From Naegleria gruberi (lineage: Eukaryota), in assembly GCA_000004985.1 (NCBI GenBank), contig GG738862.1: DNA of 64,000 bases; one strand, written 5' to 3'. A model generated the notes under the pieces. It was not told where the DNA came from and made no database searches. It saw only the letters and a program-made list of their open reading frames with translations. A program made the translations under genes and the position numbers. Shown piece after piece: positions 7,602 to 46,533 of the stretch. Positions within the stretch are counted from its first letter, which is position 1; each line of letters starts with the position of its first letter.

Positions 7602-8797
7602 ATGGGAAACCAGCAACCAAGGCATGGTAGTGTTTCTTCATCATCGGAATCATTAACAACTAATAGAACAAGTAACAATTTTCTTCCCAATGAAATTTAT
7701 TTAGAAATTATGAGCTATATGGACAGTGGGCAAATAATTAAAAATTGTTCTTTAATTTCCAAGCAATGGTGGACCATGATCAAACAACACTGTTCTTTTA
7801 GAATTATTCTCCGATATAAACTTGATATGATTCATGTAAAATCAATGAGCAAGTGTAGATTCTTGGAAAATATTAAAAGCATTGAAATTAATGCAACATA
7901 TGAGAATCATACTGAAAGATTGAAAATATATCAAGAACTATTAAGAGTTATGGGAAGGATAAAGAATTTGCATTTCTTTCCATTAATTCATTGATGATCA
8001 ATCCAAAACAAGCTGAATTGATATTGAATTTGAAAGGATTACAATATCTGAATATTGGAAGGAACAATATTGATGATGCTACTATTTGCAAAATTAGCAA
8101 AATGGATAAATTGACATCTCTAAATATTGAATCAATACATATAGGAATTGAAGGATTTAAGGCAGTATGTGGGATGAAACAATTGACAGCATTATATACC
8201 TGTTTCAATGTCGAAGTTCATACAAACGATGTAGTCAAACTAATTTCTTTATCATTACCTAATTTAACACTTTTGGATATTCAAGCAAGTTATCTAAAGG
8301 AACAAGAAGCAAAATATTTGAGTCAACTGGTAAATCTAAAATCACTGAATGTTAGATTTAACTTTCTTGGAGACGAAGGAATGCAATATATTAGTAAATT
8401 GGAAAATTTAACATTTCTGAATATTGCTCATAATATTATAACACCTGAAGGAGCAAGACAATTTAAGGAGCTGAAACACCTGACGAATCTCAATTTAAAA
8501 GGATGTGGACTTGGTGAAAAGGGATTTGAGGCACTCAAAATTAATGAACTCTGTAATTTGACAATATTAAATATTAGTGCTAATAACATTGGTTTAAAGC
8601 AAGTTCAATTCATTTGTAAGATGACTCAATTGATATCACTCGATACCAGTGAAAATCTCATTGACATAGATGGTTCCCAAATAATTAGTGAAAGGCTGTT
8701 AAATTTAAGAGAACTTGTAATGGATGAGATTGCTTTTGATGAGGAAGCAATCTCTAATATGCCTCGATTGATCTCTGTGGAATTGTTTCAAAGATGA
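7602..8797 (+). CDS. F-box-like / RNI-type leucine-rich-repeat protein (paralog A); reading frame shifts by one between 7916 and 7994 (ORFs 7602..7994 and 7991..8797)
   Basis: N-terminal F-box-like motif (LPNEIYLEIMSYM) followed by about 24-aa LRRs with the L..L.I..N.I.DEG motif, the same architecture as the single-ORF paralogs at 41135 and 45493. Both frames are open in the 7916-7994 overlap and no plausible intron is present, so this is a frameshift (pseudogene or sequence error). Confidence 0.55.
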
Positions 8798-8916
8798 AGG
8801 AGATTTTAGACATCTGACAACGTTTTGGTGTTCAATGGTTTTGGTGAAACCTTGCCACTTTGTAGTTAGGCGAGTTGTGAGTTGACTAAAATAATTTATG
8901 AAAATTACGAAAAAAA

Positions 8917-9852
8917 ATGTCATTGATGAATCAAGATGGGGACTGCTGTTGTACGGTGGACTTGATTGATTTCTCGAGTGGTGGTTGCAATAGTGAATCA
9001 TATCAAGATCCAATGATCGGAATGTTGAAACAAAAATTTAGATCACCAAAGCGAATTGCCTTCTCCAACAAATTTGAACAATTCAAAAGTATTGAATTAG
9101 AAGGTGATGATGTGTTTGATGTTAGGATTTCTCGGTCCTGCTCATTGATAATTGCCGTTAACAACAACTGTTTTGTTTTTATAGATTATGAAACATTGGA
9201 AATCAAGCGACAAGTAGAAACTGAAGAAGAATGCATGTATTTCGAACTTGAGGAAGATTATGATTATTGTGGAAATGATGCCTTGTTGATTAATTACAAT
9301 AGGAGTGTTTCGAAATATGATTTGAAACAATTTATTACAGAAGGGGAGAGTTGTAAACCCATTTGGACCTATTGTACAGGCATTGTTACAAGCCAACCTG
9401 TTAGTGTGATGATTTTGGATGGAAAAAAAGTTGTGGTCTTTAATGAGGATAGCTGTATGGCCTTTCTTGATACCAAGATAGGAACAAAGCTAATAGAGTA
9501 CACTATCAAATTGGAGGGCTCTATTTCTGGATGCATTGAACCTGATCGTAGGAAACCAAACACTCTTTATCTCTTCGTGAAGGAAATGATGAGATTTGAA
9601 TATGAGAATGGGAATTGGAAAAGTACCTCATTTACTACCGATCATAGTAATATTGATGGATTATGCATGGATAGAGTTTCTGGTGTTCTTTATTTTAGTG
9701 GATATTGTGAGACCAAATGGAGCATTTCTGCATATACAACTTCTGGAACATTTATTGGAACACATTATGTCATTTGTGGTGGTTTTTGCATTGACGAGAG
9801 AACAGGATTAATGTACATGGCAGAATCGAACAAGATTTCAATTGTGAAATAA
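8917..9852 (+). CDS. Hypothetical protein (311 aa), Cys-rich N-terminus
   Basis: Clean 311-codon ORF with ATG in an A-rich context. No recognisable family. Confidence 0.55.
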   Translation: MSLMNQDGDCCCTVDLIDFSSGGCNSESYQDPMIGMLKQKFRSPKRIAFSNKFEQFKSIELEGDDVFDVRISRSCSLIIAVNNNCFVFIDYETLEIKRQVETEEECMYFELEEDYDYCGNDALLINYNRSVSKYDLKQFITEGESCKPIWTYCTGIVTSQPVSVMILDGKKVVVFNEDSCMAFLDTKIGTKLIEYTIKLEGSISGCIEPDRRKPNTLYLFVKEMMRFEYENGNWKSTSFTTDHSNIDGLCMDRVSGVLYFSGYCETKWSISAYTTSGTFIGTHYVICGGFCIDERTGLMYMAESNKISIVK

Positions 9853-10665
9853 TGGGGGAGACAACCTGCACATTATGCTTATCCCTGGATAACTGCTCGA
9901 TAGACCACCGTCAGCTTGTTCCCGCCAAGTCCTGACTTTGTTATGTGGGGATAAGCATATTGTGCTGGCTTCAGCTACCACTGTCAGCCAATAATGCACA
10001 GTTGAACATTTTTTGACCCATTTTCTTTATTATCTATTGAAATTCTTGTTCAATACTCGCAATTAAAGTTCAATGTAATAATGTCACTTCTGTGTTTGCT
10101 CCATGTTCAACTATTTCAAAGAAGTCTAATCATGAAAAAACAAACAACGACCATAATTCAGTTTTCAAAAAACATCCATCGAGAAAGGTTTTTAAGATTT
10201 GTTCGAATTTCCACTCTTTGGTTTCTTCATACTTACCTTGAAGGACATTTCAGTGATCATGCAGACTGAAATGTGAATCTGGAAACTCTCCTCCTTGCAC
10301 TCAGAGGATGAGTAGCCAGAGTTTGGTCAATAATCAAAGTGGTTGTTGCACTCCTTCTCAATTTTTTCCTGTGAGGATTCATCTGGTATGATTTCTCGCT
10401 CTGTTAACAAATAGAAATTCAATGAAAATATGTGTTGAAGTGGTCTTGCATTCGAATAGTTGCTGCAACGAAGAATCTCCAACAAGTCCAAGTTACCTTG
10501 TATTGGCCTTCACTTGCTGGATTATTTAATACCAACTGAACCCAAATACATGGTGATAGATTTGCTGAAGCTACTGAATAATTCATCAAAATTTCAAAAG
10601 CTCAAGCTGTGAGTCATTTTTTATATCTTAAATAAACGTTGGATTTAAAGTGTTAATTTGAAAAA

Positions 10666-10783
10666 GACTACAGCACCACAGGTTCCCAAGTTGTCTCCAA
10701 CCTCAGTACTGATGTGGCTCGACGATGCTTAACTTCTCAAATCGGACGGGATGAGGTGCATTCATCGTGATATGGCCGTAGCC
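10666..10783 (-). rRNA. 5S ribosomal RNA, copy 1
   Basis: Reverse complement reads GGCTACGGCCATATCACGATGAATGCACCTCATCCCGTCCGATTTGAGAAGTTAAGCATCG…GGTTGGAGACAACTTGGGAACCTGTGGTGCTGTAGTC. The ends pair as helix I, box C (GAAGTTAAGC) is present, and a T5 run follows the 3' end (pol III terminator). Confidence 0.9.
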
Positions 10784-11697
10784 ATTCATTTCTTCAAAAT
10801 GTTAAACTTCAATGTAGAATCCAACAGTTTGCTTTAAGCACCTACCAAATCTGTTCTTTGTATTCAACAACTCCTGTTCACACAACCCAGACCAAAAAAT
10901 CTAGGAAATCAATTTGGAATTTTCAACATTACGGACAATTCCAATCCAACAACTAACTGCACACCTCATTCCACAAACACTGTTCTTTTGAAAAAAAAAC
11001 CTTTAAATGAAACGAAAACAAGCAGCTCGTATCTTGAAAGCATTCCTATCTCTGTTGAGGATTCTCATTCTACATTTCTATCCACAACTGTTTGGTCAAT
11101 TCCAGAGCAAAGTGGCGCAAGTTGTGGAGGAGAAGAAGGGTCAATTGATATTGAAAAGGAAGGCACTCAAACAATTCCTCCAGAAATTATATACCATCCT
11201 CTTGTTTAGAATGTTATTGAGGAAGAGGAAAAGTAGATTCACAATGATCGGAATTAGAAAATTTACTACTCCACAACAACAACAACAACAATCTAATGAT
11301 GGAGCAGTAAGAACATTAACTGCATTGGCCAATAACTAGGAAGGGAAATATTGGATAAGAAAAGAATCAAAGTGTTGCTGAGAAGTTGAGAATGAGAATT
11401 GTAAAGCGTGAAGAATCATGTGATGAAGGTTCAAGTGAAGTATTTCGTGGATTCTCAATCAATATATCTCTAGAGAGAAGATGCTGATTTCAAATAGTTT
11501 GGATAATGGTGCATTATAATGATGAAGATAATGAGAAAATTGGATATTCGAATATCTGGATAAGAAAGGTATTGGATAAGAGTGCATTAGTCAACTTGTA
11601 ATATTGAGCAGGTTGAAACTAGTTGAAGATATGATAATTTACAATTTGTAATATTTTGTAATTGTTGAAATTAATTAAATAAAAATTATTAAAAAAA

Positions 11698-13185
11698 ATG
11701 ACTGACAGTTCGTGGCAGATTATTCCTGATGAAATTTTGATCAATATTTTCGAATATTTACATTCGATTGATTATGTCCGTATTGCCCACGTTTCTTCTC
11801 ACTGGAGAAAACTTGCAAAATTATCCTATTGTCATTCGGTGTGGAATTTACAACAATATCACAAGGATTTGAGTAGAACTACTCCATCACTCTGTCAACC
11901 TAAACTAAATAATGATGTTTTATGGTTGTTTTCGAAAGTTTATTTATCAATTGATCCCAATAATGTGAAATTTATTAATGAATTTATCAAGAATTTGTTA
12001 ACTTCTAAAAAATTGAAACATTTAATTGTGGAAAATCCAAGTTTTTTGGAAAGTTCGAATATTTTCAAACAGTTTGATAATGGAGCGACAAGTTGTGAGA
12101 GTCTTACTGCTTTGGAGATTGTTTCTAGTTATGCTATGATTGACTGTATGGATAAATTTCCAAATTTGAAAGTTCTCAAGTTTAGAAATTGTTATGGAGT
12201 AATTGGAATTTCATTGATGAAACATATTCATCAAAGATTGGAGAGTTGTGCTATTGAAAATTCATATTTTGATTCAAAAACGTTTTTCAATGCGATTGAG
12301 AATGGAGTTTCGAATTTAAAAAAGATTAGTTTAGAGTTTATCAAAAAAGAAGATTTAACTGCATTGAGCTTGAGCTCGTTTCCCTATTTGAGAAAATTGA
12401 AAATATCAAAAATTAACCTTCAAATAGCTCACTTATTATGGAATTCGTTTAGTCATCAATTGAAAAAGTTCAATATTACTCTGGCTGATGATGAATATCA
12501 AGTTTTTGATTTTCAAAAAAGAAATGCTCCTCATTTGAAATCATTGCAACTTTGCAACTCAACTTTGGATGAATGTGATATAGAAATGCCTCAATTAGAG
12601 CATTTGGAATTTTATTATGTATACGAATTGCCAGTAATCATTTCCAAATTCGTTGGATTGAAAACTCTAATTATTAGAAACTGTTACGAAATGGATTTTT
12701 CCAATATTGGTCAACTCTTGCAATTACGACACTTGGAAGCAAGTAATGTTGGCGATTTGGAAGCTGTTAGACATATTTCGAAATTGGAAAATATCATTCA
12801 TTTAACAATTTCAGGAATTAATGATGCTGGAAGTGAAATTATTTCTAATGGAAATCTTAGAAACCTGAAATGCTTGGAAATTGATTTTGAAAATCCTGAG
12901 AAATCAGCTTACTATCTCTCACACTCCAATTTAACAAACTTGAGAATTATTCGATTCACTCTCAATGAAGAGGCAAGCAAAATATTCAGTCGAACGAGCT
13001 TGGAATTGAGGACTGTTATTCTAAACGAAATATGTGAAGTTTCACACCTTATCAAGAACTTGCAATGTGACCAAATTGTTGTGTGGACATTAAAACGCCT
13101 CCCCAACTTGGACCAAAATTCCAAATTGGCTATGAAATGCAATAAGAGATTAATATTCACCAATGATTACAAACCATTCCTTTAA
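11698..13185 (+). CDS. F-box / LRR-like protein (495 aa)
   Basis: N-terminal F-box (IPDEILINIFEYLHSIDYVRIAHVSSHWRKLA) followed by Leu-rich repeats. Intact ORF. Confidence 0.75.
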   Translation: MTDSSWQIIPDEILINIFEYLHSIDYVRIAHVSSHWRKLAKLSYCHSVWNLQQYHKDLSRTTPSLCQPKLNNDVLWLFSKVYLSIDPNNVKFINEFIKNLLTSKKLKHLIVENPSFLESSNIFKQFDNGATSCESLTALEIVSSYAMIDCMDKFPNLKVLKFRNCYGVIGISLMKHIHQRLESCAIENSYFDSKTFFNAIENGVSNLKKISLEFIKKEDLTALSLSSFPYLRKLKISKINLQIAHLLWNSFSHQLKKFNITLADDEYQVFDFQKRNAPHLKSLQLCNSTLDECDIEMPQLEHLEFYYVYELPVIISKFVGLKTLIIRNCYEMDFSNIGQLLQLRHLEASNVGDLEAVRHISKLENIIHLTISGINDAGSEIISNGNLRNLKCLEIDFENPEKSAYYLSHSNLTNLRIIRFTLNEEASKIFSRTSLELRTVILNEICEVSHLIKNLQCDQIVVWTLKRLPNLDQNSKLAMKCNKRLIFTNDYKPFL

Positions 13186-13489
13186 AGATGATCAAAATTA
13201 AAAAGACAACCACCACACCAGCTAGCCGACGAGGAAATAACAGTAACCAAACCAGCTGGGGTGGTAAGTTGCCCTTTCTCCTTTCGAAGATCAATGGAGA
13301 CCAGAGGCCGTCGGGGTTGCAGTGTGATCACTTATTCCTCGCTATCTTAAACATGATTAGGGCATGTTTCTGTACCAGTTTAGATTGTAAATAACTCCCT
13401 CTTGTGGTTTATTAATTTTATTATTTTTATTTATGAACTTTCGATTTCAGAACCATATGAGGAAAACAAAGATTTGTTGTGATATGAAT

Positions 13490-23593: not shown

Positions 23594-23695
23594 AATTAAT
23601 TATTTCTAAATAATATGTAATTGATTATTATTTTCTTTATTAATTTTAAATCATCTTATAATAATTTAATAAATAATTTAAACAAGATCAAAAAA

Positions 23696-24999: not shown

Positions 25000-27900
25000 A
25001 TGGGTAAAGACGATATTGTTTTCTTACCATCCAAAGAAGTGGTAATTAGTACAATTAAAAAGTTTCAAACAGATTCTTCACTTGAATGGATATTCTTTGC
25101 CTATCAAGAATCTGATCCATCCACAAAACTTGCCAAAGGAAACAGCAATACTATTGAATTGGCTCGTACAGGAAGTGAACCACTCGATAGAAATCAATTG
25201 CAAACTCTTCGTGATGTGACAAAGGATTCTGAAGAAAGTATCAAGGCCTACCTCTCTCCACACAGTGCCAACTACTTTATTGCTCGTATTGATGCAAATC
25301 GTTACATTTTCATTAATTGGATTGGTACAAAAACCAAGACATTACAAAAAACCAGAGTAATGACTCACAGACTTGAATTGAAATCAATGGCTGAGAAATT
25401 ATTGTCCATGTCCTTTGTTTTCGATCATAATGGAATTGATGAGTTTGACAAATTGGTTAATATTGTTGATTCTTCTCGTTCTTTTGAATTTGAAAATATG
25501 AAAGATCAAAAACAAACATCCTCTCCACGTACCACTACTACCACAACTGCTACTACTGGTGGCTCTTCTCAAGTTGCCTCTGCCTCTGCTTCTTTAAAGT
25601 CTGCTTCTTCTTCATCATCATCATCATCTAGTAATACTACTAGTGCTAGTTCTTCTTCAAGTGGTAACAATTCTGCCACTAAGGGATCCTTAATGAACAG
25701 ATACAATCCTCAAACTTTAACAGAACAAGAACAAATCAATGCTAGACGTCATCAACGTTCTGGATCCAAACCACCAAAACTTGGACTTGCTGCAATTATG
25801 CGTCAAGTGTTGAAATTGGACGAAACAAACATTACTCCACTCTTGAAACAACGTTCATTTGGTTGGTTATTGTTGGGTTATAATGCTGATGGTTTGTGTC
25901 AAGTTGAAGGTCAAGGAAATGATCAATGTACATTCCCAGATCCACTCTTTGATGCTTTGAAAGAAGATGATATGCAATATATTGTTCTTCGTTGGGTTTT
26001 ATCTGACACTGGTTATGGTGGTGATGTTGAAAAGACCTATTTCTTGTCATATGTTGGTTCTGCTGTTAATTCTGTTCGTCGTGGTAAGGTAAATCAACAC
26101 AAACAAGAAGTTTATGATTATGTTAATAAGCATTTCCAATTGGGAGGTGAAGTTACAATTACTGCTCTTGAAGAATTGAATGTTGATTACATTAAGAATG
26201 TCATGTTGGGTAATAGAAGTGCTAATACTGTTACTTTGACAGATTGGGGTACTGTTCCAGTTAAGGCATCCCCAGTTGTTGGACAAACTAGTCAACCAAA
26301 GGCAACTGCTTCTCCAATCAATTCTCCAAGAAACATCAAGAAGGAAACAGCTACTGCTTCTGTTGCTACATCATCAGTTACAACAGATGCTCCAGAAAAA
26401 CCAATCGAAAGAAAGGGAAGTGAATTGTTGAGTAAGATTAAATTGGGATTCAAGGAAGGAAAATTGAAGGGTATCAAGGGAACTACTCCTGAACCTGCTG
26501 AAGATCTTACTTCACCTAAGAATTTGAAATCTCCTGGAAGAGAACCACTTAAATCACCAGGTAGAGATGGTCTTACTTCTCCTGGAAGAAAAAAGTCAAC
26601 CAAGGGTGGTATTCTCAGTTTCTCAGCTAACAATATGGACAAATTCTCTGCTAGTTTGAAAAAGAAGGATATTGTAAAGGTTCCTAATTTGGGAACTGGT
26701 CAAAACGCCATCAAGATTGAAGACGAAACTAAGGTTATTGACAAGTTGTACGATCTCAAAGATCCACTCGATAGAAATAACCAATGGGTTTTATTCAGTT
26801 ATCCAAATGACAAGACTCTCAATATTTTATCGCTTGTTGATAGTGGTTCTGAACCAATTTCTAAATCTGTTGCTGTCACCTCTCAATTGACTGATAATGG
26901 TGTCAAGTACTTTATTCACAAGTTCTACGTTGAAAGAAATGGAAGAATTGAAGCTAAATTCAGAGTTATTATCTGGAGAGGTAAATCTATTAGAGCTTAC
27001 TTCAAGGCCATTTGTACTAACCATGCCATGAAGTTGGTCACTACTATTGCTCCTGTCATTACTCAAGTTGAAGGTGATCCAATTATTTTGACTGATGTTG
27101 CTGAAGTTCCAAATGTTGTCTTATCATTGGAAGGTTTTGGTACTCCACTCGATCATGATTCTGCCATTAAGAAATTGGAAGAAAAATTGGCTGCTGCTGA
27201 ACAACGTGAAAAGCAAAAGGAAACTTCATCACCATCCAATAAGATCCAACACGAAAAGAGAGTGTCAATGAAGAAGGCTGATTACAATGCAGGTATTGAA
27301 GCTGGTTTGAAGATTTTGAACGAAGAAGAATTGATTCAAAGAATGAAGGAATTGCAAAGTGATGAAAGTGCCGTTTCCTGGGTCACCATTAGTTATAAGG
27401 ATTCCAAGACTTTGCAACTTGATGGATATGGTTCTGGAACTGCTGAATCATTCAAATCCAAGTTTACTGATGATAAGGTTTACTACACATTGTACAAACA
27501 ATTCTTGGAAGAATTGGGTGGTGCTCCAAAGACTATTCTCATTGCTTGGGTTGGTCAAGATGTCAAGCCAATGGCCAAGGCCTCTACTACTCCTCATCGT
27601 ATTGCTCTCTTCAAGTATTGCTTACGTCACGTCACTTTATCTAGTGAATATCAACCAATCACTATCAATGATTTGGATAATGATTCAATCTTTGGTAAGG
27701 TTTCTGGTGGAAGCAAGAGTGGATCAAGTGGTGTTGTTTCTAAATCATTTGGTGGTAAGAGTCAATCCCTTACACTCGCTGATGAGAATATCATTCTCGA
27801 ACAAGTTAAGGATTTGAATTCTGATGCCACTGCCACAAACTGGGTCAAGCTAGGATATAATGAATCTGGACATTTGAAATATGAAGAAAAGGGACAAGGT

Positions 27901-29859
27901 GGTTTGGCTGAATTTGAACGTCGTCTCTCTGATGATTCTGTAAATTATGTACTTTACAAGACCTATGTTGAACACAGTCCAAAGATTACTTTGATTACAT
28001 GGGTCGGTTCTGGTGTCACTGCTGGTACTGCCAAGGCAAGAGCTACCACACATCAACTTGAATTGGAAGCTTTCGTTAAGAAGGTCTTCACTGTTGCTGC
28101 TTTATATCAAGCTTTAGAAAGAGAAGAATTGAAGGAAGAATTAATCTACAAGAAGGTTGCTGGTTCCAACATTATTATCGCTCCAACTGCTGTCTCAAAG
28201 GGTACATTTGGTGGTAGAGATTCTAGTTTGAAATTCGATAATGATCAAGCTGTTCTTGATGCTTTCAAGGAATTGAGAGGAAATTCTGGAATCAGATGGT
28301 TGCTTTTCGAATATGTTCCTGGAAATCAATACACTGTTCGTGTTTCTCAAATCGGTAAGGGAGGTGTCAGAAACTTCAAACAATACCTCACTGATAACGT
28401 TGTTTGCTATGTTGTCATGCGTTTGACATTTATGGAATATTCAGATGTTGCCAAGGCTATTGTCATTACATGGGTTGGTGAAAATGCTCAAAGTTTCCAA
28501 AAAGCCCTCTCAGGTGGTCATAGAATCAACTTGTACGATTTCACTAGAAAGCAAATCTCAGTTGGTGGTGAATATCAACCTGAAAGTCTTGAAAGCTTGT
28601 CTGATGAAGATTTGCTTTCCAAGATTACTGGTACTAAGAGTGATAATGCTGGTGATGCTTTAGAAGAAAAGATTCAACAACAACGTGCCTTTGAAAGAGA
28701 ACGTATTGTGCAAGTTCAACCAACTATTGAAGTTAAGGATTCCAAGCAATATATTGGTGAATTTAAGGATATTGATTTTAATGGAAAGGAAGAAATCAAG
28801 AAGGCCTTGTTAGAACTTTCTGAAAAGTGTAGAAAGGAACAACATGATAGAGCTCTTGAAGATGCCACCATTCACTACATTAAGATGAAGTTGACTGGTA
28901 AGGAATTACGTGATGTAGTCATTGAATCTACTGGAGATGGTGCATTGAGTGAAGAATGGAGAGCTACTCATCTCGATTCAAAGGAATTCCTTCTCTTCAT
29001 CTTTGGTTTGTTCACATCTGAAGGTGGTTATGGTATGATGACCAAGTATGTCTTTGTTCAATGGACAGGACATGATACCAAGCACTTGTTGAAGGCCAAG
29101 GCCAGTGAAATCAGACAATCCATCTACAATTTCTGTAATAAGGAGTTGAACATGTCTGGCGAAATTCAAGGTTGCACTAAACCAGAACACATTACCAAGA
29201 AGTTGGTTTTGGAAAAGATTACCGGTTCAAACGTTCGTGGTAGTGAAATGAGATTGGAAAAGAAGGACAAGAAATTCGAAGGCTTGGGTAAGGAAAAGAA
29301 GAGTAAACTTGTCATCAAAGACCAAGAAACATTGAATCACTACGTTGAAGATATGATTCTCCAAGATTACCTCGAAAAAGATGAGGATAAGAAGGACGAT
29401 GATGATCCAGAAGAATGGAGAAATCACAAGAGAATTACTAAAGGTAAACTTGATTGGATCTTGTTGAGCTATTCCAAGGATTCCATTGATGAAATCAACG
29501 TTACTGCTCATGGTGAAGGTGACGTTCAAGCTTTTAAACAACACTTGAAACCAGATAGTGTCAACTTTGTAATTATCAGAGTTTTCCACGCTCAAGGTTA
29601 TGCAAAGGATATTTCCATGTTGACCGATAATAGAATCAACCTTGCCAAGCCATACTTTACTCTCATCTATTGGAAGGGAGAAAATGTTCAAGTTTTAGAA
29701 AAGGCTCTCACTTCTCATCACTTTAATGCATTCCACAAGTTGATGACTCAAAAATTCATGAGAATGAAATCATCACTCCAAGGTTCAACTTATCAAGCTG
29801 AAACTTATGAAGAATTGGACATGGAACGTATTAAGAAATTGATGAGATTGTATGATTAA
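25000..29859 (+). CDS. Giant actin-binding-type protein composed of about 8 tandem ADF-H (coactosin/drebrin-like) domains, 1619 aa, single exon
   Basis: Repeated about 130-aa modules, each with a W(V/L)LxxY start, GxGG(L/V)xE(F/L) centre and a (I/L)xW(V/T)GxxV…(K/H) tail, as in coactosin (e.g. WVKLGYNESGHLKYEEKGQGGLAEFERRL…ITLITWVGSGVTAGTAKARATTHQ). Ser/Thr-rich linkers separate the modules. Confidence 0.85.
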   Translation: MGKDDIVFLPSKEVVISTIKKFQTDSSLEWIFFAYQESDPSTKLAKGNSNTIELARTGSEPLDRNQLQTLRDVTKDSEESIKAYLSPHSANYFIARIDANRYIFINWIGTKTKTLQKTRVMTHRLELKSMAEKLLSMSFVFDHNGIDEFDKLVNIVDSSRSFEFENMKDQKQTSSPRTTTTTTATTGGSSQVASASASLKSASSSSSSSSSNTTSASSSSSGNNSATKGSLMNRYNPQTLTEQEQINARRHQRSGSKPPKLGLAAIMRQVLKLDETNITPLLKQRSFGWLLLGYNADGLCQVEGQGNDQCTFPDPLFDALKEDDMQYIVLRWVLSDTGYGGDVEKTYFLSYVGSAVNSVRRGKVNQHKQEVYDYVNKHFQLGGEVTITALEELNVDYIKNVMLGNRSANTVTLTDWGTVPVKASPVVGQTSQPKATASPINSPRNIKKETATASVATSSVTTDAPEKPIERKGSELLSKIKLGFKEGKLKGIKGTTPEPAEDLTSPKNLKSPGREPLKSPGRDGLTSPGRKKSTKGGILSFSANNMDKFSASLKKKDIVKVPNLGTGQNAIKIEDETKVIDKLYDLKDPLDRNNQWVLFSYPNDKTLNILSLVDSGSEPISKSVAVTSQLTDNGVKYFIHKFYVERNGRIEAKFRVIIWRGKSIRAYFKAICTNHAMKLVTTIAPVITQVEGDPIILTDVAEVPNVVLSLEGFGTPLDHDSAIKKLEEKLAAAEQREKQKETSSPSNKIQHEKRVSMKKADYNAGIEAGLKILNEEELIQRMKELQSDESAVSWVTISYKDSKTLQLDGYGSGTAESFKSKFTDDKVYYTLYKQFLEELGGAPKTILIAWVGQDVKPMAKASTTPHRIALFKYCLRHVTLSSEYQPITINDLDNDSIFGKVSGGSKSGSSGVVSKSFGGKSQSLTLADENIILEQVKDLNSDATATNWVKLGYNESGHLKYEEKGQGGLAEFERRLSDDSVNYVLYKTYVEHSPKITLITWVGSGVTAGTAKARATTHQLELEAFVKKVFTVAALYQALEREELKEELIYKKVAGSNIIIAPTAVSKGTFGGRDSSLKFDNDQAVLDAFKELRGNSGIRWLLFEYVPGNQYTVRVSQIGKGGVRNFKQYLTDNVVCYVVMRLTFMEYSDVAKAIVITWVGENAQSFQKALSGGHRINLYDFTRKQISVGGEYQPESLESLSDEDLLSKITGTKSDNAGDALEEKIQQQRAFERERIVQVQPTIEVKDSKQYIGEFKDIDFNGKEEIKKALLELSEKCRKEQHDRALEDATIHYIKMKLTGKELRDVVIESTGDGALSEEWRATHLDSKEFLLFIFGLFTSEGGYGMMTKYVFVQWTGHDTKHLLKAKASEIRQSIYNFCNKELNMSGEIQGCTKPEHITKKLVLEKITGSNVRGSEMRLEKKDKKFEGLGKEKKSKLVIKDQETLNHYVEDMILQDYLEKDEDKKDDDDPEEWRNHKRITKGKLDWILLSYSKDSIDEINVTAHGEGDVQAFKQHLKPDSVNFVIIRVFHAQGYAKDISMLTDNRINLAKPYFTLIYWKGENVQVLEKALTSHHFNAFHKLMTQKFMRMKSSLQGSTYQAETYEELDMERIKKLMRLYD

Positions 29860-32566: not shown

Positions 32567-32579
32567 ATATCTACAGATT

Positions 32580-38812: not shown

Positions 38813-40349
38813 ATGAGTGATATTGCAAGCGATTTTGAAACTGTACCAGAACCATACAAGATTAAGGTAGTAGAACCAATTAAATTAATTGCAAGACAGG
38901 AGAGAGAAGTTGCCATTAAGGAAGCTGGCCTCAATCAATTCTTATTAAAATCTGATGATGTTTTCATTGACTTATTAACGGACAGGTAAGTGGTATTATC
39001 TTGTTTCAAACCTATATAAAATCGGAACTTATTCAACTTTATCAATTTGTTACAGTGGTACAGGTGCAATGAGTCAAAACCAGTGGGCTGGGATGATGCT
39101 TGGTGATGAATCATACACTGGAAGGTTTGTTTTCATTTTCTTCTTTTAACCAAATGATGTAATAATAACTATTAATACATAATATGTAATCAGCCGTAAT
39201 TATTATAATCTCCAAAAGAGTGTGGAAGATATCTTGGGATTTAAATACTATTGTCCAACCCATCAAGGAAGAGGTGCTGAAAATATCTTGTTTGGTATCA
39301 TCATTAAGAAGGGTCAATATATTCTCGGAAATTATCACTTTGATACTACAAAGGCACATATTGAATTGAATTCTGGTTTGGCTGTCAATTTAATTCATGA
39401 AAGAGCTTATAACACATCTGTTGAACATCCATTTAAGGGAAATATTGATCTTGAAAAGTTGGAACACTTTATTGTGGAAAAGACTCCAGAAAAGATTGCA
39501 TTCTTGTTAATGACCATCACTTGTAATAGTGTTGGTGGTCAACCTGTTTCAATGGAAAATCTTCGTGGTGCCTATCAAGTTGCAAAGAAGTATAATTTAC
39601 CAATCTTTATTGATGCTGCTCGTTTTGCAGAGAATGCTTACTTTATTAAGAAGAGAGAAGCAGGTTATGAAAATAAGACAATTACAGAAATTGTTTGAGA
39701 AATGTTCTCATACAGTGATGGTTGTACAATGAGTGCCAAGAAGGATGGTCTTGTCAATATTGGTGGTATGATTGGTATTAAGGAGGATGAAGAATTATTC
39801 AAAAAGGTTAAACAAAGATGTGTTCCAATGGAAGGTTTCCCAACTTATGGTGGTTTGGCTGGCAGAGATATGGAAGCTTTGGCAATTGGTATGAGAGAAG
39901 TTGTAGATGAAGCTTATTTGGCTTCTCGTATCGATCAAGTTGAATATTTGGGAAGAAAGTTGAAAGAAGCTGGCATTCCTATTCAACAACCGTTGGGAGG
40001 TCATGCAGTTTTCATCAATGCTAAAGAATTCTTGCCTCACATTCCTCAAACTCAATATCCAGCTCAAGCTCTCTGTGTGGAATTGTATCTTGAGGGTGGT
40101 GTTAGAGCTGTTGAAGTGGGAACTTTATTGGCAGGTAGAGATCCAGAAACTGGTTTGGAAATTTTACCTGAACTCGATCTTTTACGTTTGACAATACCAA
40201 GAAGAGTTTATACAAATAATCACATGGATTGGGTTGCCACTTGCTTGAAGAGAATTGCTGCCAGAAAGGACAGGATTAGAGGGTTGAAGATTGTTGAAGA
40301 ACCACCAATTTTACGTCACTTTATGGCAAGATTTGATTGGGCAGAATAA
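38813..40349 (+). CDS. tnaA-like: Tryptophanase (tryptophan indole-lyase, beta-eliminating lyase family); exons 38813..38985, 39056..39124 and 39194..40349; introns 38986..39055 (GTAAGT, 70 nt) and 39125..39193 (GTTTGT, 69 nt). In-frame TGA at 39696..39698
   Basis: The protein is collinear with bacterial TnaA: …FIDLLTDSGTGA…, THQGRGAEN, and [12 protein letters not shown] containing the PLP lysine. Introns have correct phase. A single TGA splits two same-frame ORFs (…[13 protein letters not shown]…) and aligns to a conserved Arg (E. coli ITRETYKYAD). Confidence 0.8.
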
Positions 40350-40723
40350 ATTATTTTTATTTTGTAAAGTTAATATAATATTTAAGATTAACAGACGAAC
40401 ATTCGACAATGTAGCTACCATTGAATCCATTCAAACAAACAAAAAAATGAGCGTGAATATATAAAATGGTCGACCAATTTTCTATTGAATTGTATGATTG
40501 GAATAGATTCTCCAAGAATGTAAGTACACGATTAGTTTCGAATAATTAAATGTGAAATGAAATGCAGGTATTGCTCGATAGAACTGCTTTGATTTTTAAA
40601 CCTTATGATGTCACTCCAAAAGAAAACACTTGGATTGGGATGAAAGTGGAAAAGTGGAAGATCTGATTCCACAACTGAATAAACCCAGATCAAACCAAAA
40701 CCATAACTTCTCTCAAAACTTCT

Positions 40724-40795
40724 GCTGACGGACGGGATCGAACCGGCGACCAATGGCTTATTAGACCAACGCTCTACCGACTGAGCTACGCCAGC
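40724..40795 (-). tRNA. tRNA-Ile(AAU)
   Basis: Reverse complement GCTGGCGTAGCTCAGTCGGTAGAGCGTTGGTCTAATAAGCCATTGGTCGCCGGTTCGATCCCGTCCGTCAGC folds as a cloverleaf with anticodon loop CTAATAA, TTCGATC T-loop and discriminator A. One mismatch in each of the anticodon and T stems. Confidence 0.75.
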
Positions 40796-40872
40796 TTATT
40801 GATAATAATTGGTTTTAATAATTCTGTAAATGATGCTATGTCATTTGACATTTTAAATATATAACTCAAATT

Positions 40873-40986
40873 GAAATTGTTCTCAATAAAATGTAGGGTT
40901 TGTTTAGAAATTGTTCTCAATAAAATGTAACATAACGTAGCTCTTTCAACGTTAAAATTATTAAATACCAACTGAGCTACGCCAGC
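40873..40986. repeat. Two 23-bp tandem copies GAAATTGTTCTCAATAAAATGTA (40873..40895, 40907..40929) plus a 20-nt duplicate of the tRNA-Ile 5' end (40967..40986), all just upstream of tRNA-Ile
   Basis: Exact direct repeats 34 bp apart. ACCAACTGAGCTACGCCAGC is the reverse complement of the first 20 nt of the tRNA with one mismatch. Confidence 0.7.
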
Positions 40987-41134
40987 TTCTAGAAGACCCT
41001 TAATGAACTTAGCAAATACCTTACCATGGTGGACAAGCTAAAAGTACTATTTTTGAACATTTTGGTAAATTGTGGTTGGTTCTCTTCTAACATGAATACA
41101 GAAGATGTCACATCTCTTTAGAACATCATAAAAC

Positions 41135-42553
41135 TTGACAAGAAAAAATAAGCAAACAAAGCAGATCTGCAAGATTTTGAAAATTAATTTCGGCGGAACT
41201 ATTCATCAAAAAAACATGGAGAAAAAACTCGAGTCTCTCCAACGAGAAGAAATATTTTCAGATGATATTTGTTTTGAAATAATTTCCATGATTGATGATT
41301 CGTGGTTTATTTTGAATAATTGTTCCTTGATTTCAAAACAATTCTTTAATGTGATCAAGGAACGTTCAAAACTTTTTATTGAATTTAAAAAAAAATTTAC
41401 AGAAAAAAGAATTGAACTATTCACAAAGAGTCAATTTATGAATAGTATTGTTAAAGTTAAATTTTCAACAAATTTGTTTGTCTCTATTGAAAATCACAAA
41501 TTCATAAGTGAAATGAAACAATTAACTTCACTTAATATTTCTAACAATCAAATTAATGATGAAACAGCCAAATCAATAATTGAAATGAAACGATTAACAT
41601 CACTTGATATTGGTGGAAATCAAATTGGTGATGAAGGAATCAAATTAATTAGTGAAATGAAACAATTAACATTACTTGATATTAGTGGAAATAGTATTGG
41701 TGATAAAGGAGTCAAACCAATTAGTAAAATGAAACAATTAACATCACTTAATATTTATAACAACGAAATTGGTGTAGCAGGATCCAAATTTATAATTGAA
41801 ATGAAACAATTAACATCACTTGATATAAGCTACAATGAAATTGGTGATGAAGGAGCCAAATCAATAAGTGAATTGAAACAATTAACATCACTTACTGTTA
41901 GTGGAAATCAAATTGGTGATGAAGGAATCAAATTAATTAGTGAAATGAAACAATTAACATTACTTGATATTAGTGGAAATAGTATTGGTGATAAAGGAGT
42001 CAAACCAATTAGTAAAATGAAACAATTAACATCACTTAATATTTATAACAACGAAATTGGTGTAGCAGGATCCAAATTTATAATTGAAATGAAACAATTA
42101 ACATCACTTGATATAAGCTACAATGAAATTGGTGATGAAGGAGCCAAATCAATAAGTGAAATGAAACAATTAACATCACTTACTATTAGTGGAAATCAAA
42201 TTGGTGATGAAGGAATCAAATTAATTAGTGAAATGAAACAATTAACATTACTTGATATTAGTGGAAAATCAGTTGGTGATAAAGGAGTCAAATCAATTAG
42301 TAAAATGAAACAATTAACATCACTTACTATTTATACCAATGAAATTGGTGTAGCAGGAGCCAAATTTATAAGTGAAATGAAACAATTAACATCACTTGAT
42401 ATAAGCTACAATGAAATTGGTGATGAAGGAGCAAAATCAATAAGTGAATTGAAACAATTAACATTACTTGATATTAGTGGAAATGGAATTGGTGATGAAG
42501 GATCCAAATTTATAATTGGAATGAAACAATTAAAATCACTTGATATTCAGTAG
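41135..42553 (+). CDS. F-box-like / RNI-type LRR protein (paralog B, 472 aa; alternative start 41216)
   Basis: N-terminal EIFSDDICFEIISMI motif, then about 16 repeats of a 24-aa LRR (MKQLTSLDISGNQIGDEGAKSISE). Confidence 0.7.
   Translation: MTRKNKQTKQICKILKINFGGTIHQKNMEKKLESLQREEIFSDDICFEIISMIDDSWFILNNCSLISKQFFNVIKERSKLFIEFKKKFTEKRIELFTKSQFMNSIVKVKFSTNLFVSIENHKFISEMKQLTSLNISNNQINDETAKSIIEMKRLTSLDIGGNQIGDEGIKLISEMKQLTLLDISGNSIGDKGVKPISKMKQLTSLNIYNNEIGVAGSKFIIEMKQLTSLDISYNEIGDEGAKSISELKQLTSLTVSGNQIGDEGIKLISEMKQLTLLDISGNSIGDKGVKPISKMKQLTSLNIYNNEIGVAGSKFIIEMKQLTSLDISYNEIGDEGAKSISEMKQLTSLTISGNQIGDEGIKLISEMKQLTLLDISGKSVGDKGVKSISKMKQLTSLTIYTNEIGVAGAKFISEMKQLTSLDISYNEIGDEGAKSISELKQLTLLDISGNGIGDEGSKFIIGMKQLKSLDIQ
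41627..42490 (+). repeat. Higher-order tandem repeat inside the LRR gene: three 288-bp units (4 LRRs each) at 41627..41914, 41915..42202 and 42203..42490. The first two are about 98% identical
   Basis: GGTGATGAAGGAATCAAATTAATTAGTG… recurs at exactly 288-bp spacing, with only a few substitutions between units 1 and 2. The 72-bp sub-period corresponds to one LRR. Confidence 0.8.
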
Positions 42554-42876
42554 TATTATACAGTCAATCCTTTGTTAAGCACTAACATATGGTTCCTTTA
42601 AATTACGATTAGTTAACCTAATATAAATGTAGCAAGTATTTTAACAGTCCAACCTGCATTACAATGGACAGTGTTATTGTAAAAGGAGTGGGATTGAAAC
42701 AAGCAAGGAATTTCATAGATTGGGAGTAACTGGCTGTCAGGAATCAACAGGCAACAGAATTAATCGAAAAGGAAAATGGAATGATAGATTAATGACTTAA
42801 AAATCGATTTGACACTCTATCATCAATCGAGCTATTGTTCCATCTTCCTGGTTGTTACTAACTTCCACCATAAAAA

Positions 42877-44148
42877 TTGCAATCAACTTGCTGCATTGAG
42901 TTCCACTTAAAAAAAATAGGCAGAACAATGTTCCCATTTCACAAACGGAAAACCCAACTGTTGGACGAAACTTCATTGGAAACAGTGGATATTTTGTCTC
43001 TTGTTTTTCAATTTCTCGAGCTGAAAGAATTATTCGCTCTCCAAAAAGTATCACCCTTCTTCTACCGAACCATTGAACATTTGAAATCCTTACTGATCCG
43101 ACCAATATATGAAGTTGGTTTAGTTTCGTCCGATAAGAAACAATTATCGGAATTTCTTCAACTTACTTTAAAATCAGAATTAATTAGTTCAGCCACAAAG
43201 GAAAACCCACAAAAAGTTTCAAGTACTAGATACACTTATTATTCTACAACCGAAATCGACATGACAGATAAAAATGATGGCAATCAGCTCAAAAGTGTGA
43301 AATTTGGAGAGCATCATATGATTCATGCTTTTAACAAGGTTGAAAAGGAGTTTGTCTTTAAGAATGATAGATTTAGAGTATTCTTTTATCCATTGTATTG
43401 TGAAAAGAGTACGAGTTTATCACATGATGATTATCAACGACTGGATGGGTTCATATTTTTGAATCCAAACAGCAAAGATGGATATTCAACAATGCCGAAT
43501 GGATGTAGTTTTTGTGCAACACTCTTGGATTATAATAATTCTTCAGTTGCCAATGAAACAGTACTAATGCCAGTAAGAAATTTCGGATCTTTTAAAGTTG
43601 AGAAAGTGAGTGAAAGATATTCGATAGAACAATCAATTCTCGACTGTATTAATTACATTTCAGAGAACTCAAATCGATCAATTCAATTGAACTCAATAGG
43701 AGATGGCTTAAAATCATGTTTATTAGAAAAAATTTCATTAATCATTAAGGAACCCAATGATGAAATGGTTGCCACTAAAATATCAGATCTATTCAAGAAC
43801 AAATACACACTCAAAGAGCTGATACTCTCAGAGAAAGTGAGATACATGACCAGAAAATTGAATTTCTTCAATTATCCACACAATGTCCAATTCAGTCTTT
43901 TGAAAAGACTTTACACAGCTCATTTGGGAAATGAAAATGTTAAATTCAAAGATGATCTCTATGCCATTCAGGTTATTTTCAATCAGCAATTCAATTCTAG
44001 AAAAAGGGATTCATACGATGACCATTTGGTGGAAATGAAAACTACGCTCTCATTCAATTTAGTATCTCAGGAAATTAAGTTCGAATACAAGAATATTACA
44101 AGAGCAAGTACTATTGGCATTAGTAATAAAAAGTGCATCATTTGTTAG
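42877..44148 (+). CDS. Hypothetical F-box-like protein (423 aa; probable start 42928)
   Basis: N-terminal motif VDILSLVFQFLELKELFALQKVSPFFYRTI resembles an F-box. The remainder has no recognisable family. Confidence 0.55.
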   Translation: MQSTCCIEFHLKKIGRTMFPFHKRKTQLLDETSLETVDILSLVFQFLELKELFALQKVSPFFYRTIEHLKSLLIRPIYEVGLVSSDKKQLSEFLQLTLKSELISSATKENPQKVSSTRYTYYSTTEIDMTDKNDGNQLKSVKFGEHHMIHAFNKVEKEFVFKNDRFRVFFYPLYCEKSTSLSHDDYQRLDGFIFLNPNSKDGYSTMPNGCSFCATLLDYNNSSVANETVLMPVRNFGSFKVEKVSERYSIEQSILDCINYISENSNRSIQLNSIGDGLKSCLLEKISLIIKEPNDEMVATKISDLFKNKYTLKELILSEKVRYMTRKLNFFNYPHNVQFSLLKRLYTAHLGNENVKFKDDLYAIQVIFNQQFNSRKRDSYDDHLVEMKTTLSFNLVSQEIKFEYKNITRASTIGISNKKCIIC

Positions 44149-44363
44149 TCAATTCCAATTAAGAAAATTCTTCTTAGATCGGAGCAAAATATAAATTTTA
44201 ATTTTAATTAATATTTTAAAAAATGTTGTATTAACAACTTCATCCATCTACCAAATCATCATCACGAATAACAAAATAAATCATCAAAAACAGATATTCT
44301 TTACCTTCATGAAAAACACTAAACCATCATCAATCCTTCTAGTATGGGATTAGCATTTAAAAA

Positions 44364-45446
44364 ATGGGCAATAATCAAACCACTTCTCACAGATCCCTTC
44401 CTACCGAGCATGCATCTTTCTCCAATTCTTCTCGCGAATATGCCAATCAATACATAATGATCGCAGGTGGTCCATCAGTAGTAATTTATCAAGGCTTGGT
44501 TGATCAAATAATTTCTATCGAAAATCGAATAGAAAATGCTGCTAATTATGAGAAGGTAAAGAGTGAATGTCTGAAAGGTATTCAGCAACGTTTGGTGAAA
44601 TATTTCCCTGTTCATTTTCATGATACAGTTTCGGAAAAGATAGAAGAACAATTGGTTGACCTGTGGCATAGCCCCAATTTTAAAGAGGAATACTTTGCGA
44701 ATAGATTCCAGGTAGATCCATACTTGGTCTTGCCAACTGTATTTAATAATTTGGAGAGAGGAATCAAATTTAATTTGAAAAGAACTTGCTTGTTCCAACC
44801 AGCAGGTAGACAATATTATTTCACAACATGCTATTCGAAAACAACTGATAATTTTCCACACAGCCGTAATCAAAAGTTGACATTTGAATTATTTGCTAAT
44901 TGTTTTTCTGCTGATACTTGGGCTGATGTAGTTGGAGCATCATTTTCTCTATCTGACTATGATAACAATCAATATTTAGATGAATTTTATCAAGTGTGTA
45001 GAAGATTGTCTGGATTTTCTACATACAGAATGATTTTAATATTTACTCATCTTGATGTTCTCAATGAAAAGATAAAGTTGGGACTAATTAACTATGGAGG
45101 AGATAAAGATATAGAAATTCGAAAAGAATTCAATCATATTCCAAAAGAATGTGCTCTCATCATTGAATATCTCATCAAAGAAGCCAAAAAAAATATAGAA
45201 ATGAATCCAAGCCATGACTTTCCCAATAGGACATTGGAATACCACATTGTAAATACATCAAGTGACAGTGATATGAAAGAATTATTGGATTGTATTTGTA
45301 TTGGAGCAAATTCTAAGAGAAAATGCTTCATATCCTCTAAAATTGAAATGCCACCTTTCTCATATCCTAACACCAGATTCAAGAGCAACATGCACAGAAC
45401 CTCAGAACTAAATCAGTTTTGTGATATTGCAATATTGCTAAATTGA
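44364..45446 (+). CDS. Hypothetical protein with N-myristoylation-type start (MGNNQT); possibly a degenerate Gα-like pseudo-GTPase
   Basis: Begins MGxxxT. Has weak Gα-like remnants (IMIAGGPSVV in place of the P-loop, TTCYSKTTD, MILIFTHLDVLNEKIK) and no intact GKS P-loop. Family assignment is speculative. Confidence 0.5.
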   Translation: MGNNQTTSHRSLPTEHASFSNSSREYANQYIMIAGGPSVVIYQGLVDQIISIENRIENAANYEKVKSECLKGIQQRLVKYFPVHFHDTVSEKIEEQLVDLWHSPNFKEEYFANRFQVDPYLVLPTVFNNLERGIKFNLKRTCLFQPAGRQYYFTTCYSKTTDNFPHSRNQKLTFELFANCFSADTWADVVGASFSLSDYDNNQYLDEFYQVCRRLSGFSTYRMILIFTHLDVLNEKIKLGLINYGGDKDIEIRKEFNHIPKECALIIEYLIKEAKKNIEMNPSHDFPNRTLEYHIVNTSSDSDMKELLDCICIGANSKRKCFISSKIEMPPFSYPNTRFKSNMHRTSELNQFCDIAILLN

Positions 45447-45492
45447 CTTTAGTTTTCCATTTCCTAAAGGTCAGAACTCTTCAAAATAAAAA

Positions 45493-46533
45493 ATGAGCCA
45501 ACAAGAAAAGGAGGAAACAGTGGCACCAACCAAAGAAGAATCACCACAGCCAGTTTTTCCCGATGATGTGATATTTGAAATTATTTCCTTCAATAATGAT
45601 TTTAAATTTACAGTAAGGAGTTGTGCGTTGGTTTCTTCACAGTGGTTTAATGTCATTTTGGAAAGATCAAAACTTTCACTCACACACAACAGTAAAAAGA
45701 AAATTAATGGCCAATTTTTACAGCGTATTGTAGCTGTCAATGGGATGAAAAAATGTGATTGTATTCCATTTCTTGATCAAGTATTTGATCTCAAGAACTT
45801 GACTACCCTTGACGTTAATTGTATGAAAATTAAAGATGAAGGAGTAAAGATAATAAGTGAAATGAAACAGTTGACCAATCTTAATGTAGGCAGCAGTGGT
45901 ATTAGTGTTGAGGGAGTCAAATATATCAGCGGCATGAATCAATTAACTAATCTCAATATAAGCCGCAATAATATACGAGCAGAAGGAGCCCGTTACGTTA
46001 GTGAAATGAAACTATTAACCAATCTTAATATTTATTTAAACGGTATTAGAGCAGAAGGTACCAAATACATCAGTGAAATGAAAGAATTGACTTGTCTTAA
46101 TATAATGAGTAATGCAATTCACGATAAAGGCGCAGAACACCTTCGTCAAATGCCTAAATTGAATACACTCAATATTAATTCAAATAGTATCAGTGTAGAA
46201 GGAGCCAAATTTATTAGTGAAATACAGTCATTAACTAATCTTGATATTGGTTTCAATACTATTGGAGATGACGGTGTCAAATTTATAAGCAAAATGGAAA
46301 AACTAACAAAACTTTATACAATGTACATTAATATTGGAGAAAAAGGAGCCAAACACATTAGTGAAATGGAACAATTAACTAGTCTCAATATTAATTCGAA
46401 TAATGTAGGAACAGAAGGAGCAAAGTACTTATGTGAAATGAAACATTTAACATATATGAATATTTGCAACAACAATGTAGACAAACAATCCCAATTTATC
46501 AAAGATGCTACAGTCTGTTTCATCCAATGCTGA
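45493..46533 (+). CDS. F-box-like / RNI-type LRR protein (paralog C, 346 aa)
   Basis: N-terminal FPDDVIFEIISF motif and about 10 LRRs of the MKQLTNLNI.SN.I..EGAKYISE type. More diverged at DNA level than paralog B. Confidence 0.7.
   Translation: MSQQEKEETVAPTKEESPQPVFPDDVIFEIISFNNDFKFTVRSCALVSSQWFNVILERSKLSLTHNSKKKINGQFLQRIVAVNGMKKCDCIPFLDQVFDLKNLTTLDVNCMKIKDEGVKIISEMKQLTNLNVGSSGISVEGVKYISGMNQLTNLNISRNNIRAEGARYVSEMKLLTNLNIYLNGIRAEGTKYISEMKELTCLNIMSNAIHDKGAEHLRQMPKLNTLNINSNSISVEGAKFISEIQSLTNLDIGFNTIGDDGVKFISKMEKLTKLYTMYINIGEKGAKHISEMEQLTSLNINSNNVGTEGAKYLCEMKHLTYMNICNNNVDKQSQFIKDATVCFIQC

Follow-up and report, generated by a model that had tools for sequence, protein, structure and literature searches.

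The closest described counterparts of the proteins reported here are the GALA or RipG proteins of Ralstonia solanacearum, type III effectors that are secreted by the bacterium and hijack plant Skp1-cullin-F-box (SCF) ubiquitin ligase. Their leucine-rich repeats (LRRs) have been defined as a type of their own, of 24 residues, with Asn3, Ile5-Gly6-Asp7, Gly or Ala at position 9, Ala10, and apolar residues at positions 13, 19, 22, and 24 (Kajava et al. 2008, PMC2244805). A conserved Leu16 is absent in these GALA-LRRs and separates them from the GALA-like GL-LRRs; for the bacterial GALA effectors, a plant origin ("from plants to bacteria") has been proposed (Kajava et al. 2008, PMC2244805). The repeats of the eukaryotic FBXL proteins are CC-LRRs of ~26 residues (PMC2244805). 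We analysed a stretch of 64,000 nucleotides of the amoeba Naegleria gruberi (assembly GCA_000004985.1, contig GG738862.1), hereafter the window, in which three genes encode an N-terminal F-box-like box followed by LRRs of 24 residues. It is rather probable that these genes belong to a Naegleria-lineage family of old paralogs, likely FBXL-like SCF adaptors with GALA-type LRRs, whose repeats were recently expanded in one of them. The searchable literature returned no paper on this Naegleria family, nor any linking Naegleria with GALA-LRRs.

Family architecture and repeat type

Two hidden Markov models (HMMs), one of the N-terminal box and one of the 24-residue LRR unit, were built and run on the six-frame translation of the window. 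Both match the same three loci only, at positions 7602-8797, 41135-42553, and 45493-46533 (each gene is called hereafter by its first position), and no other locus of the window is reported by either model at even E=0.1. The box HMM scores 108 bits on 41135, 97 on 45493, and 92 on 7602, and the LRR HMM 616 bits (15 units), 310 bits, and 134 bits in the same order. An earlier reading of this DNA made from its letters (the sequence-only reading) had proposed a family of paralogs in which an F-box-like box at the N-terminus is combined with LRRs, which is borne out by the match of all three loci with both HMMs.

In each of the three genes, a short leader precedes the F-box-like box, which is followed by a linker and then by 24-residue LRRs that make up the rest of the protein, an order that is that of the FBXL architecture. 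The layout of the family comprises the divergent F-box of ~40 residues, a conserved linker of ~35 residues, and a putative solenoid of GALA/CC-type 24-residue LRRs. The linker carries a motif common to the three paralogs (CRFLENIKSIEI, SQFMNSIVKVKF, and GQFLQRIVAVNG; pattern xF[LM]xxIxxVxF). Pairwise identity among the three proteins is only 29-45%, with 29-32% between 7602 and the other two, so that the genes are to be seen as old paralogs and not as the outcome of a recent local burst. Among the compared sequences, the best match of 45493 is 41135 (45%), and only 3 kb separate these two genes, which share a strand; their adjacency and similarity fit an ancient tandem duplication. The AlphaFold2 model of 45493 has a predicted local distance difference test (pLDDT) score of 82, rising above 90 in the LRR solenoid. 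The 41135 ORF (open reading frame) has its first ATG at 41216 and an in-frame stop just upstream of its TTG codon, at 41129-41131; the ancestral leader ATG of this gene has probably been lost, translation now starting from the ATG at 41216. As a separate observation, the TTG at 41135 aligns with the start Met of the MSKRNRQ leader of the paralogs, and would yield MTRKNKQ if it were an ATG (region 41105-41218, + strand).

The consensus over 33 repeats reads xxNxIGDEGAKxISEMKQLTSL(N/D)I. All 33 fit a 24-column model devoid of core indels, the period being strictly 24 residues (72 bp). Asn is found at position 3 in 25 of the 33 repeats, Ile at position 5 in 26, Gly at position 6 in 19, Asp at position 7 in 16, and Gly at position 9 in 26, with Ala being the most frequent residue at position 10 (11 repeats). 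The apolar positions are occupied by Ile13 (24 of 33), Leu19 (32), Leu22 (32), and Ile24 (26). Length and diagnostic positions are those of GALA-LRRs, except for position 16, which holds Met in 23 and Leu in 8 of the 33 repeats and is in the GL-like state. A phmmer search of the PDB reports RipG4 as the first hit (9j7j_A, E=1.2e-29, 106.7 bits), followed by the Legionella protein LegL1 (4xa9_A, E=1.1e-19), the next match being at 5.2e-13 and ribonuclease inhibitor at ~5e-8. Foldseek analysis of the full-length model also returns RipG4 first (E=1.2e-15), together with the FBXL2-SKP1 and FBXL17 complexes over 363-378 columns. The LRRs are assigned from these comparisons to the GALA/CC type within the wider ribonuclease inhibitor-like (RNI-like) fold class, and not to the classical ribonuclease-inhibitor type. 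The label "RNI-type", given to them in the sequence-only reading, is appropriate as regards the fold class (Pfam LRR_6, 55-212 bits) and fails for the period, which is 24 and not 28/29 residues.

Table 1. Positions of the family members, of their parts, and of the other F-box-like genes of the window
Feature	Position	Strand	Description
Paralog 1	7602-8797	+	F-box-like box and ~8 degenerate LRRs, with one frame break; Pfam LRR_6 55 bits
F-box-like box, paralog 1	7677-7787	+	FLPNEIYLEIMSYMDSGQIIKNCSLISKQWWTMIKQH; canonical Leu-Pro kept
Frame break, paralog 1	7973-7976	+	best read as the loss of 1 nt within TTT/C (cat ttc ttt cc)
Canonical F-box protein	11698-13185	+	PF12937 38.1 bits and PF00646 35.1 bits (above cut-offs); another LRR type (LRR_14 39 bits)
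Paralog 2	41135-42553	+	ORF start TTG 41135, probable coding sequence 41216-42553; box and 15 LRRs; LRR_6 212 bits
F-box-like box, paralog 2	41252-41374	+	IFSDDICFEIISMIDDSWFILNNCSLISKQFFNVIKERSKL; Ser replaces the Pro of Leu-Pro (Phe-Ser)
LRR array, paralog 2	41501-42550	+	14 full 72-bp units and a partial fifteenth; four-LRR (288-bp) higher-order repeat present ~3.6 times
Youngest duplication, paralog 2	41613-42267	+	41613-41979 versus 41901-42267, 2 mismatches in 367
Borderline F-box candidate without LRR	42877-44148	+	PF00646 20.2 bits (cut-off 20.5), E=5.6e-4; first ATG 42928
Paralog 3	45493-46533	+	intact 346-aa ORF; box 45553-45675; 10 LRRs at ~45781-46497; LRR_6 88 bits
Sub-threshold F-box-like candidate without LRR	53205-54410	+	PF12937 15.1 bits, E=0.02, with the N-terminus alone only

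The N-terminal box as a putative divergent F-box

Taken one by one, the three boxes give borderline Pfam results. The 7602 box, submitted alone, passes narrowly (PF12937 24.5 bits with a cut-off of 24.3; PF00646 22.2 bits with a cut-off of 20.5), and the whole 7602 protein scores 20.8 bits with the Pfam F-box and 23 bits with the F-box-like model. The 45493 box, which has Phe-Pro, reaches 14.9 bits with the F-box-like model, and the 41135 box returns no Pfam match, either within the whole protein or alone. The F-box call of the sequence-only reading is therefore recovered above the Pfam cut-offs at 7602 and at neither of the other two genes. The same holds for its motif (L/F)P(N/D)(E/D)I, which is exact in 7602 and becomes FPDDV in 45493 and FSDDI in 41135.

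Because the scores of individual genes are borderline, the F-box call rests on the evidence from the family. Eleven of 14 family N-termini match PF12937 and nine match PF00646 (best E=2.6e-6), no competing family being reported, and the family consensus reaches 22.1 and 19.7 bits on the Pfam F-box models. The 41135 box aligns over its full length with the family members that match these models. Across the paralogs, the box displays four invariant and four nearly invariant columns. A box profile made from the three boxes of the window was searched against 1.84 billion representative proteins. It finds only 38 cluster representatives at E<=1e-3, and most of those that can be named are N. gruberi paralogs. 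The profile also finds a rice protein (P0101) and a Chironomus protein (P0107) at ~1e-5 over the box columns, both of which are canonical multi-F-box proteins according to Pfam (79 and 144 bits). Searched against the PDB, the family profile has a single match, to the FBXO42 F-box, which is aligned in the correct register and has a weak E-value of 0.47. In UniRef, the member D2V8N5 is already named "F-box domain-containing protein". The N-terminal box is therefore assigned, with borderline scores, as a divergent F-box homolog.

Several points weigh against the reading of these genes as a family of SCF adaptors with one recently expanded member. Two of the three boxes of the window, and most members of the family, are below the Pfam cut-offs, that of 41135 being unmatched, and the Pro of Leu-Pro is replaced by Ser in most family members. 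AlphaFold2 places three helices on the box (residues 24-32, 37-47, and 49-58 in 45493; 17-24, 30-37, and 42-51 in 41135), the number that an F-box would have, but at a pLDDT of only 50-64 (~50 in 41135). When the 100 N-terminal residues are modelled alone, the pLDDT is 67, and ~50 on the box, and a fold search with this N-terminal model returns no match below E=1. To these are added the frameshift of the 7602 copy, the lack of the leader ATG in the 41135 copy, the apparent absence of the 45493 gene from the deposited gene set, and a repeat copy number that rests on a single assembly, all of which are considered in the next section.

The weak Pfam scores, the change from Leu-Pro to Phe-Ser, the unmatched 41135 box, the low model confidence, and the empty fold search would all fit a box that had ceased to function as an F-box. 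The proteins would then be LRR scaffolds or binders acting outside SCF, with the box serving as a helical cap or as another interaction module. This appears unlikely, since the box is conserved although overall identity between the paralogs is only 29-45%, and since the F-box is the only family that it resembles, consistently and in the right register. With the box taken as an F-box, the most likely role of these proteins, as judged from their sequences, is that of substrate receptor of an SCF ubiquitin ligase: by its F-box the protein would attach to Skp1, and by its LRR solenoid it would hold a target protein for ubiquitination.

Probable repeat growth and gene decay

Within the 41135 gene, Tandem Repeats Finder reports two periods over 41497-42547, one of 72 bp (14.6 copies, 78% matches) and one of 288 bp (3.6 copies, 93% matches, score 1783). 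When the units are set in the LRR register, the unit identity matrix separates four types, A-B-C-D, each of which returns every fourth repeat. At an offset of 288, positions 41613-41872 are exactly identical to 41901-42160 over 260 bp. The near-identity extends to 367 bp with two mismatches, at 41873 (TTG/ATG) and 41897 (GTT/ATT), both of which change the amino acid, and divergence climbs sharply beyond this tract. Accordingly, LRRs 3, 4, and 5 are 100% identical to LRRs 7, 8, and 9. The third unit (LRRs 11-14) is 89-97% identical per repeat and ~93% overall. All three units share a segment of 79 bp (41613-41691) with no mismatch, as it recurs at 41901-41979 and, in the list for offset 576, at 42189-42267. 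Reading frame and 24-residue register are intact over all unit junctions. The sequence-only reading had pointed to a near-identical 288-bp higher-order repeat, whose first two units differ by a few bases, and to a very recent intragenic expansion or concerted evolution. The repeat is confirmed, and a very recent duplication of the four-LRR unit is supported by the two mismatches, the sharp boundaries, and the 79-bp core shared by three units.

In the proposed history, a block of four LRRs would have been duplicated very recently in the 41135 gene, bringing the array from ~11 to 15 repeats and lengthening the solenoid. A single unequal crossover or slippage event, probably inside the shared 79-bp stretch, would add one 288-bp unit in register, and one such event would be the simplest history of these repeats. 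The arrays of the family would thus change by unequal recombination or slippage between their own near-identical LRRs, and the four added repeats would alter both the arc of the solenoid and its binding surface.

Alternatively, the near-identity might stem from gene conversion (concerted evolution) of pre-existing higher-order units, with no new duplication. The identity tract is in fact longer than one 288-bp period and its edges are sharp, and in the paralog P0012 neighbouring LRRs are almost identical, which suggests ongoing homogenisation in the family. However, the extra 79 bp are identical in the third unit too, so that a single unequal crossover within this stretch accounts for the whole pattern and conversion is not needed. 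Duplication and conversion overlap as mechanisms, and one allele cannot tell them apart. We therefore view conversion as a possible but doubtful source of the pattern, and retain a recent duplication as the preferred one.

The copy number itself could be questioned, the second 288-bp unit being an assembly artefact and the true gene having two higher-order units or another number of them. An exact identity of 260 bp combined with a triple identity of 79 bp is the type of sequence that assemblers tend to miscount, and the closest annotated paralogs (P0004, P0012, and P0015) stop abruptly within their LRRs, as if the family were troublesome in this assembly. A metagenome scan with a 35-mer from the 41135 gene gave no exact match, so that the locus has no second assembly for comparison. 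Still, with two substitutions between them the copies fall short of perfect identity, frame and register are kept through every junction, and the duplicated tract of ~650 bp is short enough to be spanned by individual Sanger reads. An artefact is on these grounds very unlikely, and the duplicated unit is treated here as genuine.

The sequence-only reading had also regarded the array as a rapidly evolving recognition surface, a claim for which the data give no support. Only 12 codons distinguish unit 2 from unit 3, nine differences being non-synonymous and three synonymous, which is approximately the neutral expectation. Two of the nine replacements fall on concave-face x positions, and one replacement removes a conserved Asn. 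Positive selection on the repeat surface was rejected, the differences being too few and too scattered. What the 41135 array does offer is a clean and small example of LRR growth, in which a four-repeat block appears to have been copied in register where the sequence is perfectly identical.

The frameshift that the sequence-only reading reported for the 7602 paralog is found as a switch from frame 1 to frame 3, with one base missing at 7973-7976. Frame 1 is open over 7602-7994 and ends at a double stop (7992-7997), and frame 3, open over 7916-8797, encodes the LRRs. As the linker motif sits in frame 1 at ~7855-7890, the break has to lie between 7890 and 7994. The addition of one base after 7975 yields ...GRIKNLHxLSINSLMINPKQAELILNLKGLQYLNIG..., by which the 24-residue period is exactly restored. 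A single-base deletion, either a genuine lesion or a sequencing error, is the best reading of this break, and any inactivation of the gene would be recent because the rest of it contains no further stops. Two other explanations were rejected: an intron, since the GT-AG candidates in the right phase either delete the linker motif or combine poor donor sites with a loss of LRRs, and programmed frameshifting, which found no support.

Beyond the window, 16 scaffolds encode at least 17 named N. gruberi proteins with the box, a lower bound and not a genome-wide count, and further members occur in environmental assemblies. One member, EFC45710, is encoded elsewhere on the scaffold of the window. The closest relatives of 41135 (P0004, P0012, and P0015) are on other scaffolds and are 63-75% identical to it. 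These three proteins comprise only 215-263 residues and stop abruptly in their LRRs, and consecutive repeats of P0012 are near-identical, a pattern from which one would suspect that gene models of this subfamily are truncated and that its repeats are still being homogenised. No N. gruberi protein in a collection of 5.8 billion proteins is more than 48% identical to 45493, a gene that the deposited set seems to lack. Since 45493 is seemingly unannotated and several paralog models end within the LRRs, published counts of the family are likely to be underestimates. No prokaryotic species genome of the GTDB set encodes the box, and a scan of viral contigs gave only two weak and distant LRR-only loci, 23-26% identical. 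Bacterial contamination or recent transfer into Naegleria was rejected, the G+C content of 31-33% and the neighbouring genes, which are ordinary eukaryotic genes, being typical of the scaffold.

The family would also shed copies, as suggested by the 1-nt deletion in 7602 and by the apparent loss of the leader ATG in 41135. One could go further and regard all three loci as decaying, non-functional relics of an expanded family, a view with which these two lesions, the absence of 45493 from the deposited set, and the nearly neutral ratio of 9:3 between repeat units are all compatible. Yet 45493 (346 codons) and the 41216-42553 segment (445 codons) are uninterrupted in AT-rich DNA, 7602 has a single lesion in 398 codons, and the consensus of the family's LRRs is well preserved. 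General decay seems quite unlikely on these grounds.

Genomic neighbourhood and relation to known systems

The window has a G+C content of ~34% and densely packed ORFs. The ORF list was made with the bacterial code and serves as a guide only, introns clearly splitting some neighbouring genes. Five complete ORFs are exact N. gruberi NEG-M proteins encoded on one scaffold, namely EFC45523 (8917-9852), EFC45535 (48200-49336), EFC45536, EFC45645, and EFC45648. The window is hence nuclear DNA of this free-living heterolobosean amoeba and neither prokaryotic nor viral. Three further F-box-like genes had been listed in the sequence-only reading (Table 1), of which 11698 is a clear case, 42877, located between paralogs 2 and 3, is borderline (20.2 versus 20.5 bits), and 53205 is below threshold, its whole protein giving no Pfam F-box match. 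Alignment with the family box by hhalign is weak for 11698 (E=0.0076, in the right register) and for 53205 (E=0.014), and reports no similarity for 42877. None of the three is matched by the box HMM in the six-frame scan of the window, and none belongs to the subfamily. Apart from the two family members that are neighbours, the F-box-like genes of the window form no cluster of any significance.

Several other genes of the window, unrelated to the family, deserve a mention. A divergent G-alpha-like protein that starts with MGNNQT (44364-45446, + strand; PF00503 30 bits, cut-off 48.8) lies between the 41135 and 45493 genes. A 1619-residue ORF at 25000-29859 (+) comprises seven cofilin/ADF-H domains (PF00241, 285.8 bits over 7 stretches), an unusual number given that known twinfilins contain two. 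The di-ubiquitin gene at 55454-55912 (-) corresponds to EFC45648, annotated "polyubiquitin". DNA identity between its two units of 228 bp is only 77%, and both units, by eye, deviate from canonical ubiquitin at several residues. A beta-eliminating lyase of the tryptophanase or tyrosine phenol-lyase type spreads over adjacent ORFs at 39222-40349 (+), probably because of introns; such lyases in protists are often suspected to be of bacterial origin. RNase HII/H2A (6000-7285, +) is split across the ORFs 6000-6362 and 6440-7285, so that a short intron is expected at ~6363-6439. The ORF at 52274-52999 (+), devoid of any Pfam match, contains a collagen-like GPLGPLGPLGALGPLGPVG run that arises from a 9-bp tandem repeat at 52369-52428. 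Lastly, two adjacent NHL-repeat genes occupy 58618-60447 and 60861-63431 (+), the second of which also encodes EGF-like domains and a C-terminal protein kinase in a receptor-kinase-like layout.

Regarding significance, a family so far filed mostly under "predicted protein" or "LRR protein" can now be described as one of probable SCF adaptors. Eukaryotes are already well known to have lineage-specific families of F-box/LRR proteins, with LRR blocks duplicated in register and with pseudogenes. The lineage-specific F-box expansions of nematodes and plants are large, fast-turnover SCF adaptor families with many pseudogenes and many lineage-restricted subfamilies, which differ from the Naegleria family in their substrate-binding domains. 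F-box/LRR expansions, repeat instability, and pseudogenes are thus expected in a eukaryotic genome, and nothing in the present findings overturns current understanding. Only the RipG-like combination of F-box and GALA-LRRs in a free-living amoeba goes beyond routine, as a native family of this kind bears on the origin of the bacterial effectors. GALA-type repeats are known otherwise from effectors of bacteria that infect plants and amoebae. Because the amoeba natively has this architecture, an amoebal source of these effectors is a testable alternative. The present data give no direction of transfer between amoebae and bacteria. That the family either belongs to an amoebal reservoir of the RipG/GALA and LegL repeats, or provides a fast-turnover set of adaptors for intracellular surveillance, by which proteins of intracellular bacteria or giant viruses would be sent to degradation, is a speculation with a slim chance of being correct. 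If it were true, soil amoebae, besides or instead of plants, would be a reservoir, and the scenario of Kajava et al. 2008 would have to be revised.

Compared with known systems, the Naegleria proteins share with the FBXL receptors (Skp2, FBXL2, and FBXL17) the N-terminal F-box followed by an LRR solenoid. Foldseek returns SKP1-bound FBXL2 (6o60_C, E=5e-13, over 378 columns) as well as FBXL17 (6wcq_B and 6w66_B). In the sequence search of the PDB, no FBXL protein occurs in the 60 best matches. The Naegleria LRRs differ from those of FBXL by being strictly 24 residues long instead of ~26, and the Naegleria F-box is at or below threshold and mostly devoid of the Pro of Leu-Pro. With ribonuclease inhibitor, the common feature is the alpha/beta horseshoe, and structures of this inhibitor are among the Foldseek matches. 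Its repeats alternate between 28 and 29 residues, unlike the period of 24 found here, and its sequence match (~5e-8) is far weaker than that of the GALA protein (1e-29). LegL1 of Legionella pneumophila, described as "Gala protein type 1, 3 or 4", is a Dot/Icm effector with the same type of LRR (27% identity and a template modelling score of ~0.9, normalised on the target, by Foldseek), but is composed of LRRs only and lacks an F-box. The GALA/RipG proteins of R. solanacearum present the same F-box and 24-residue GALA-LRR architecture as the Naegleria family, with N3, I5-G6-D7, G9, and A10 in common. In contrast with these secreted effectors, the Naegleria genes belong natively to a eukaryote; identity between RipG4 and the Naegleria family is ~25%, and the conservation of position 16 as Met or Leu (31 of 33 repeats) sets the Naegleria repeats apart from GALA-LRRs.

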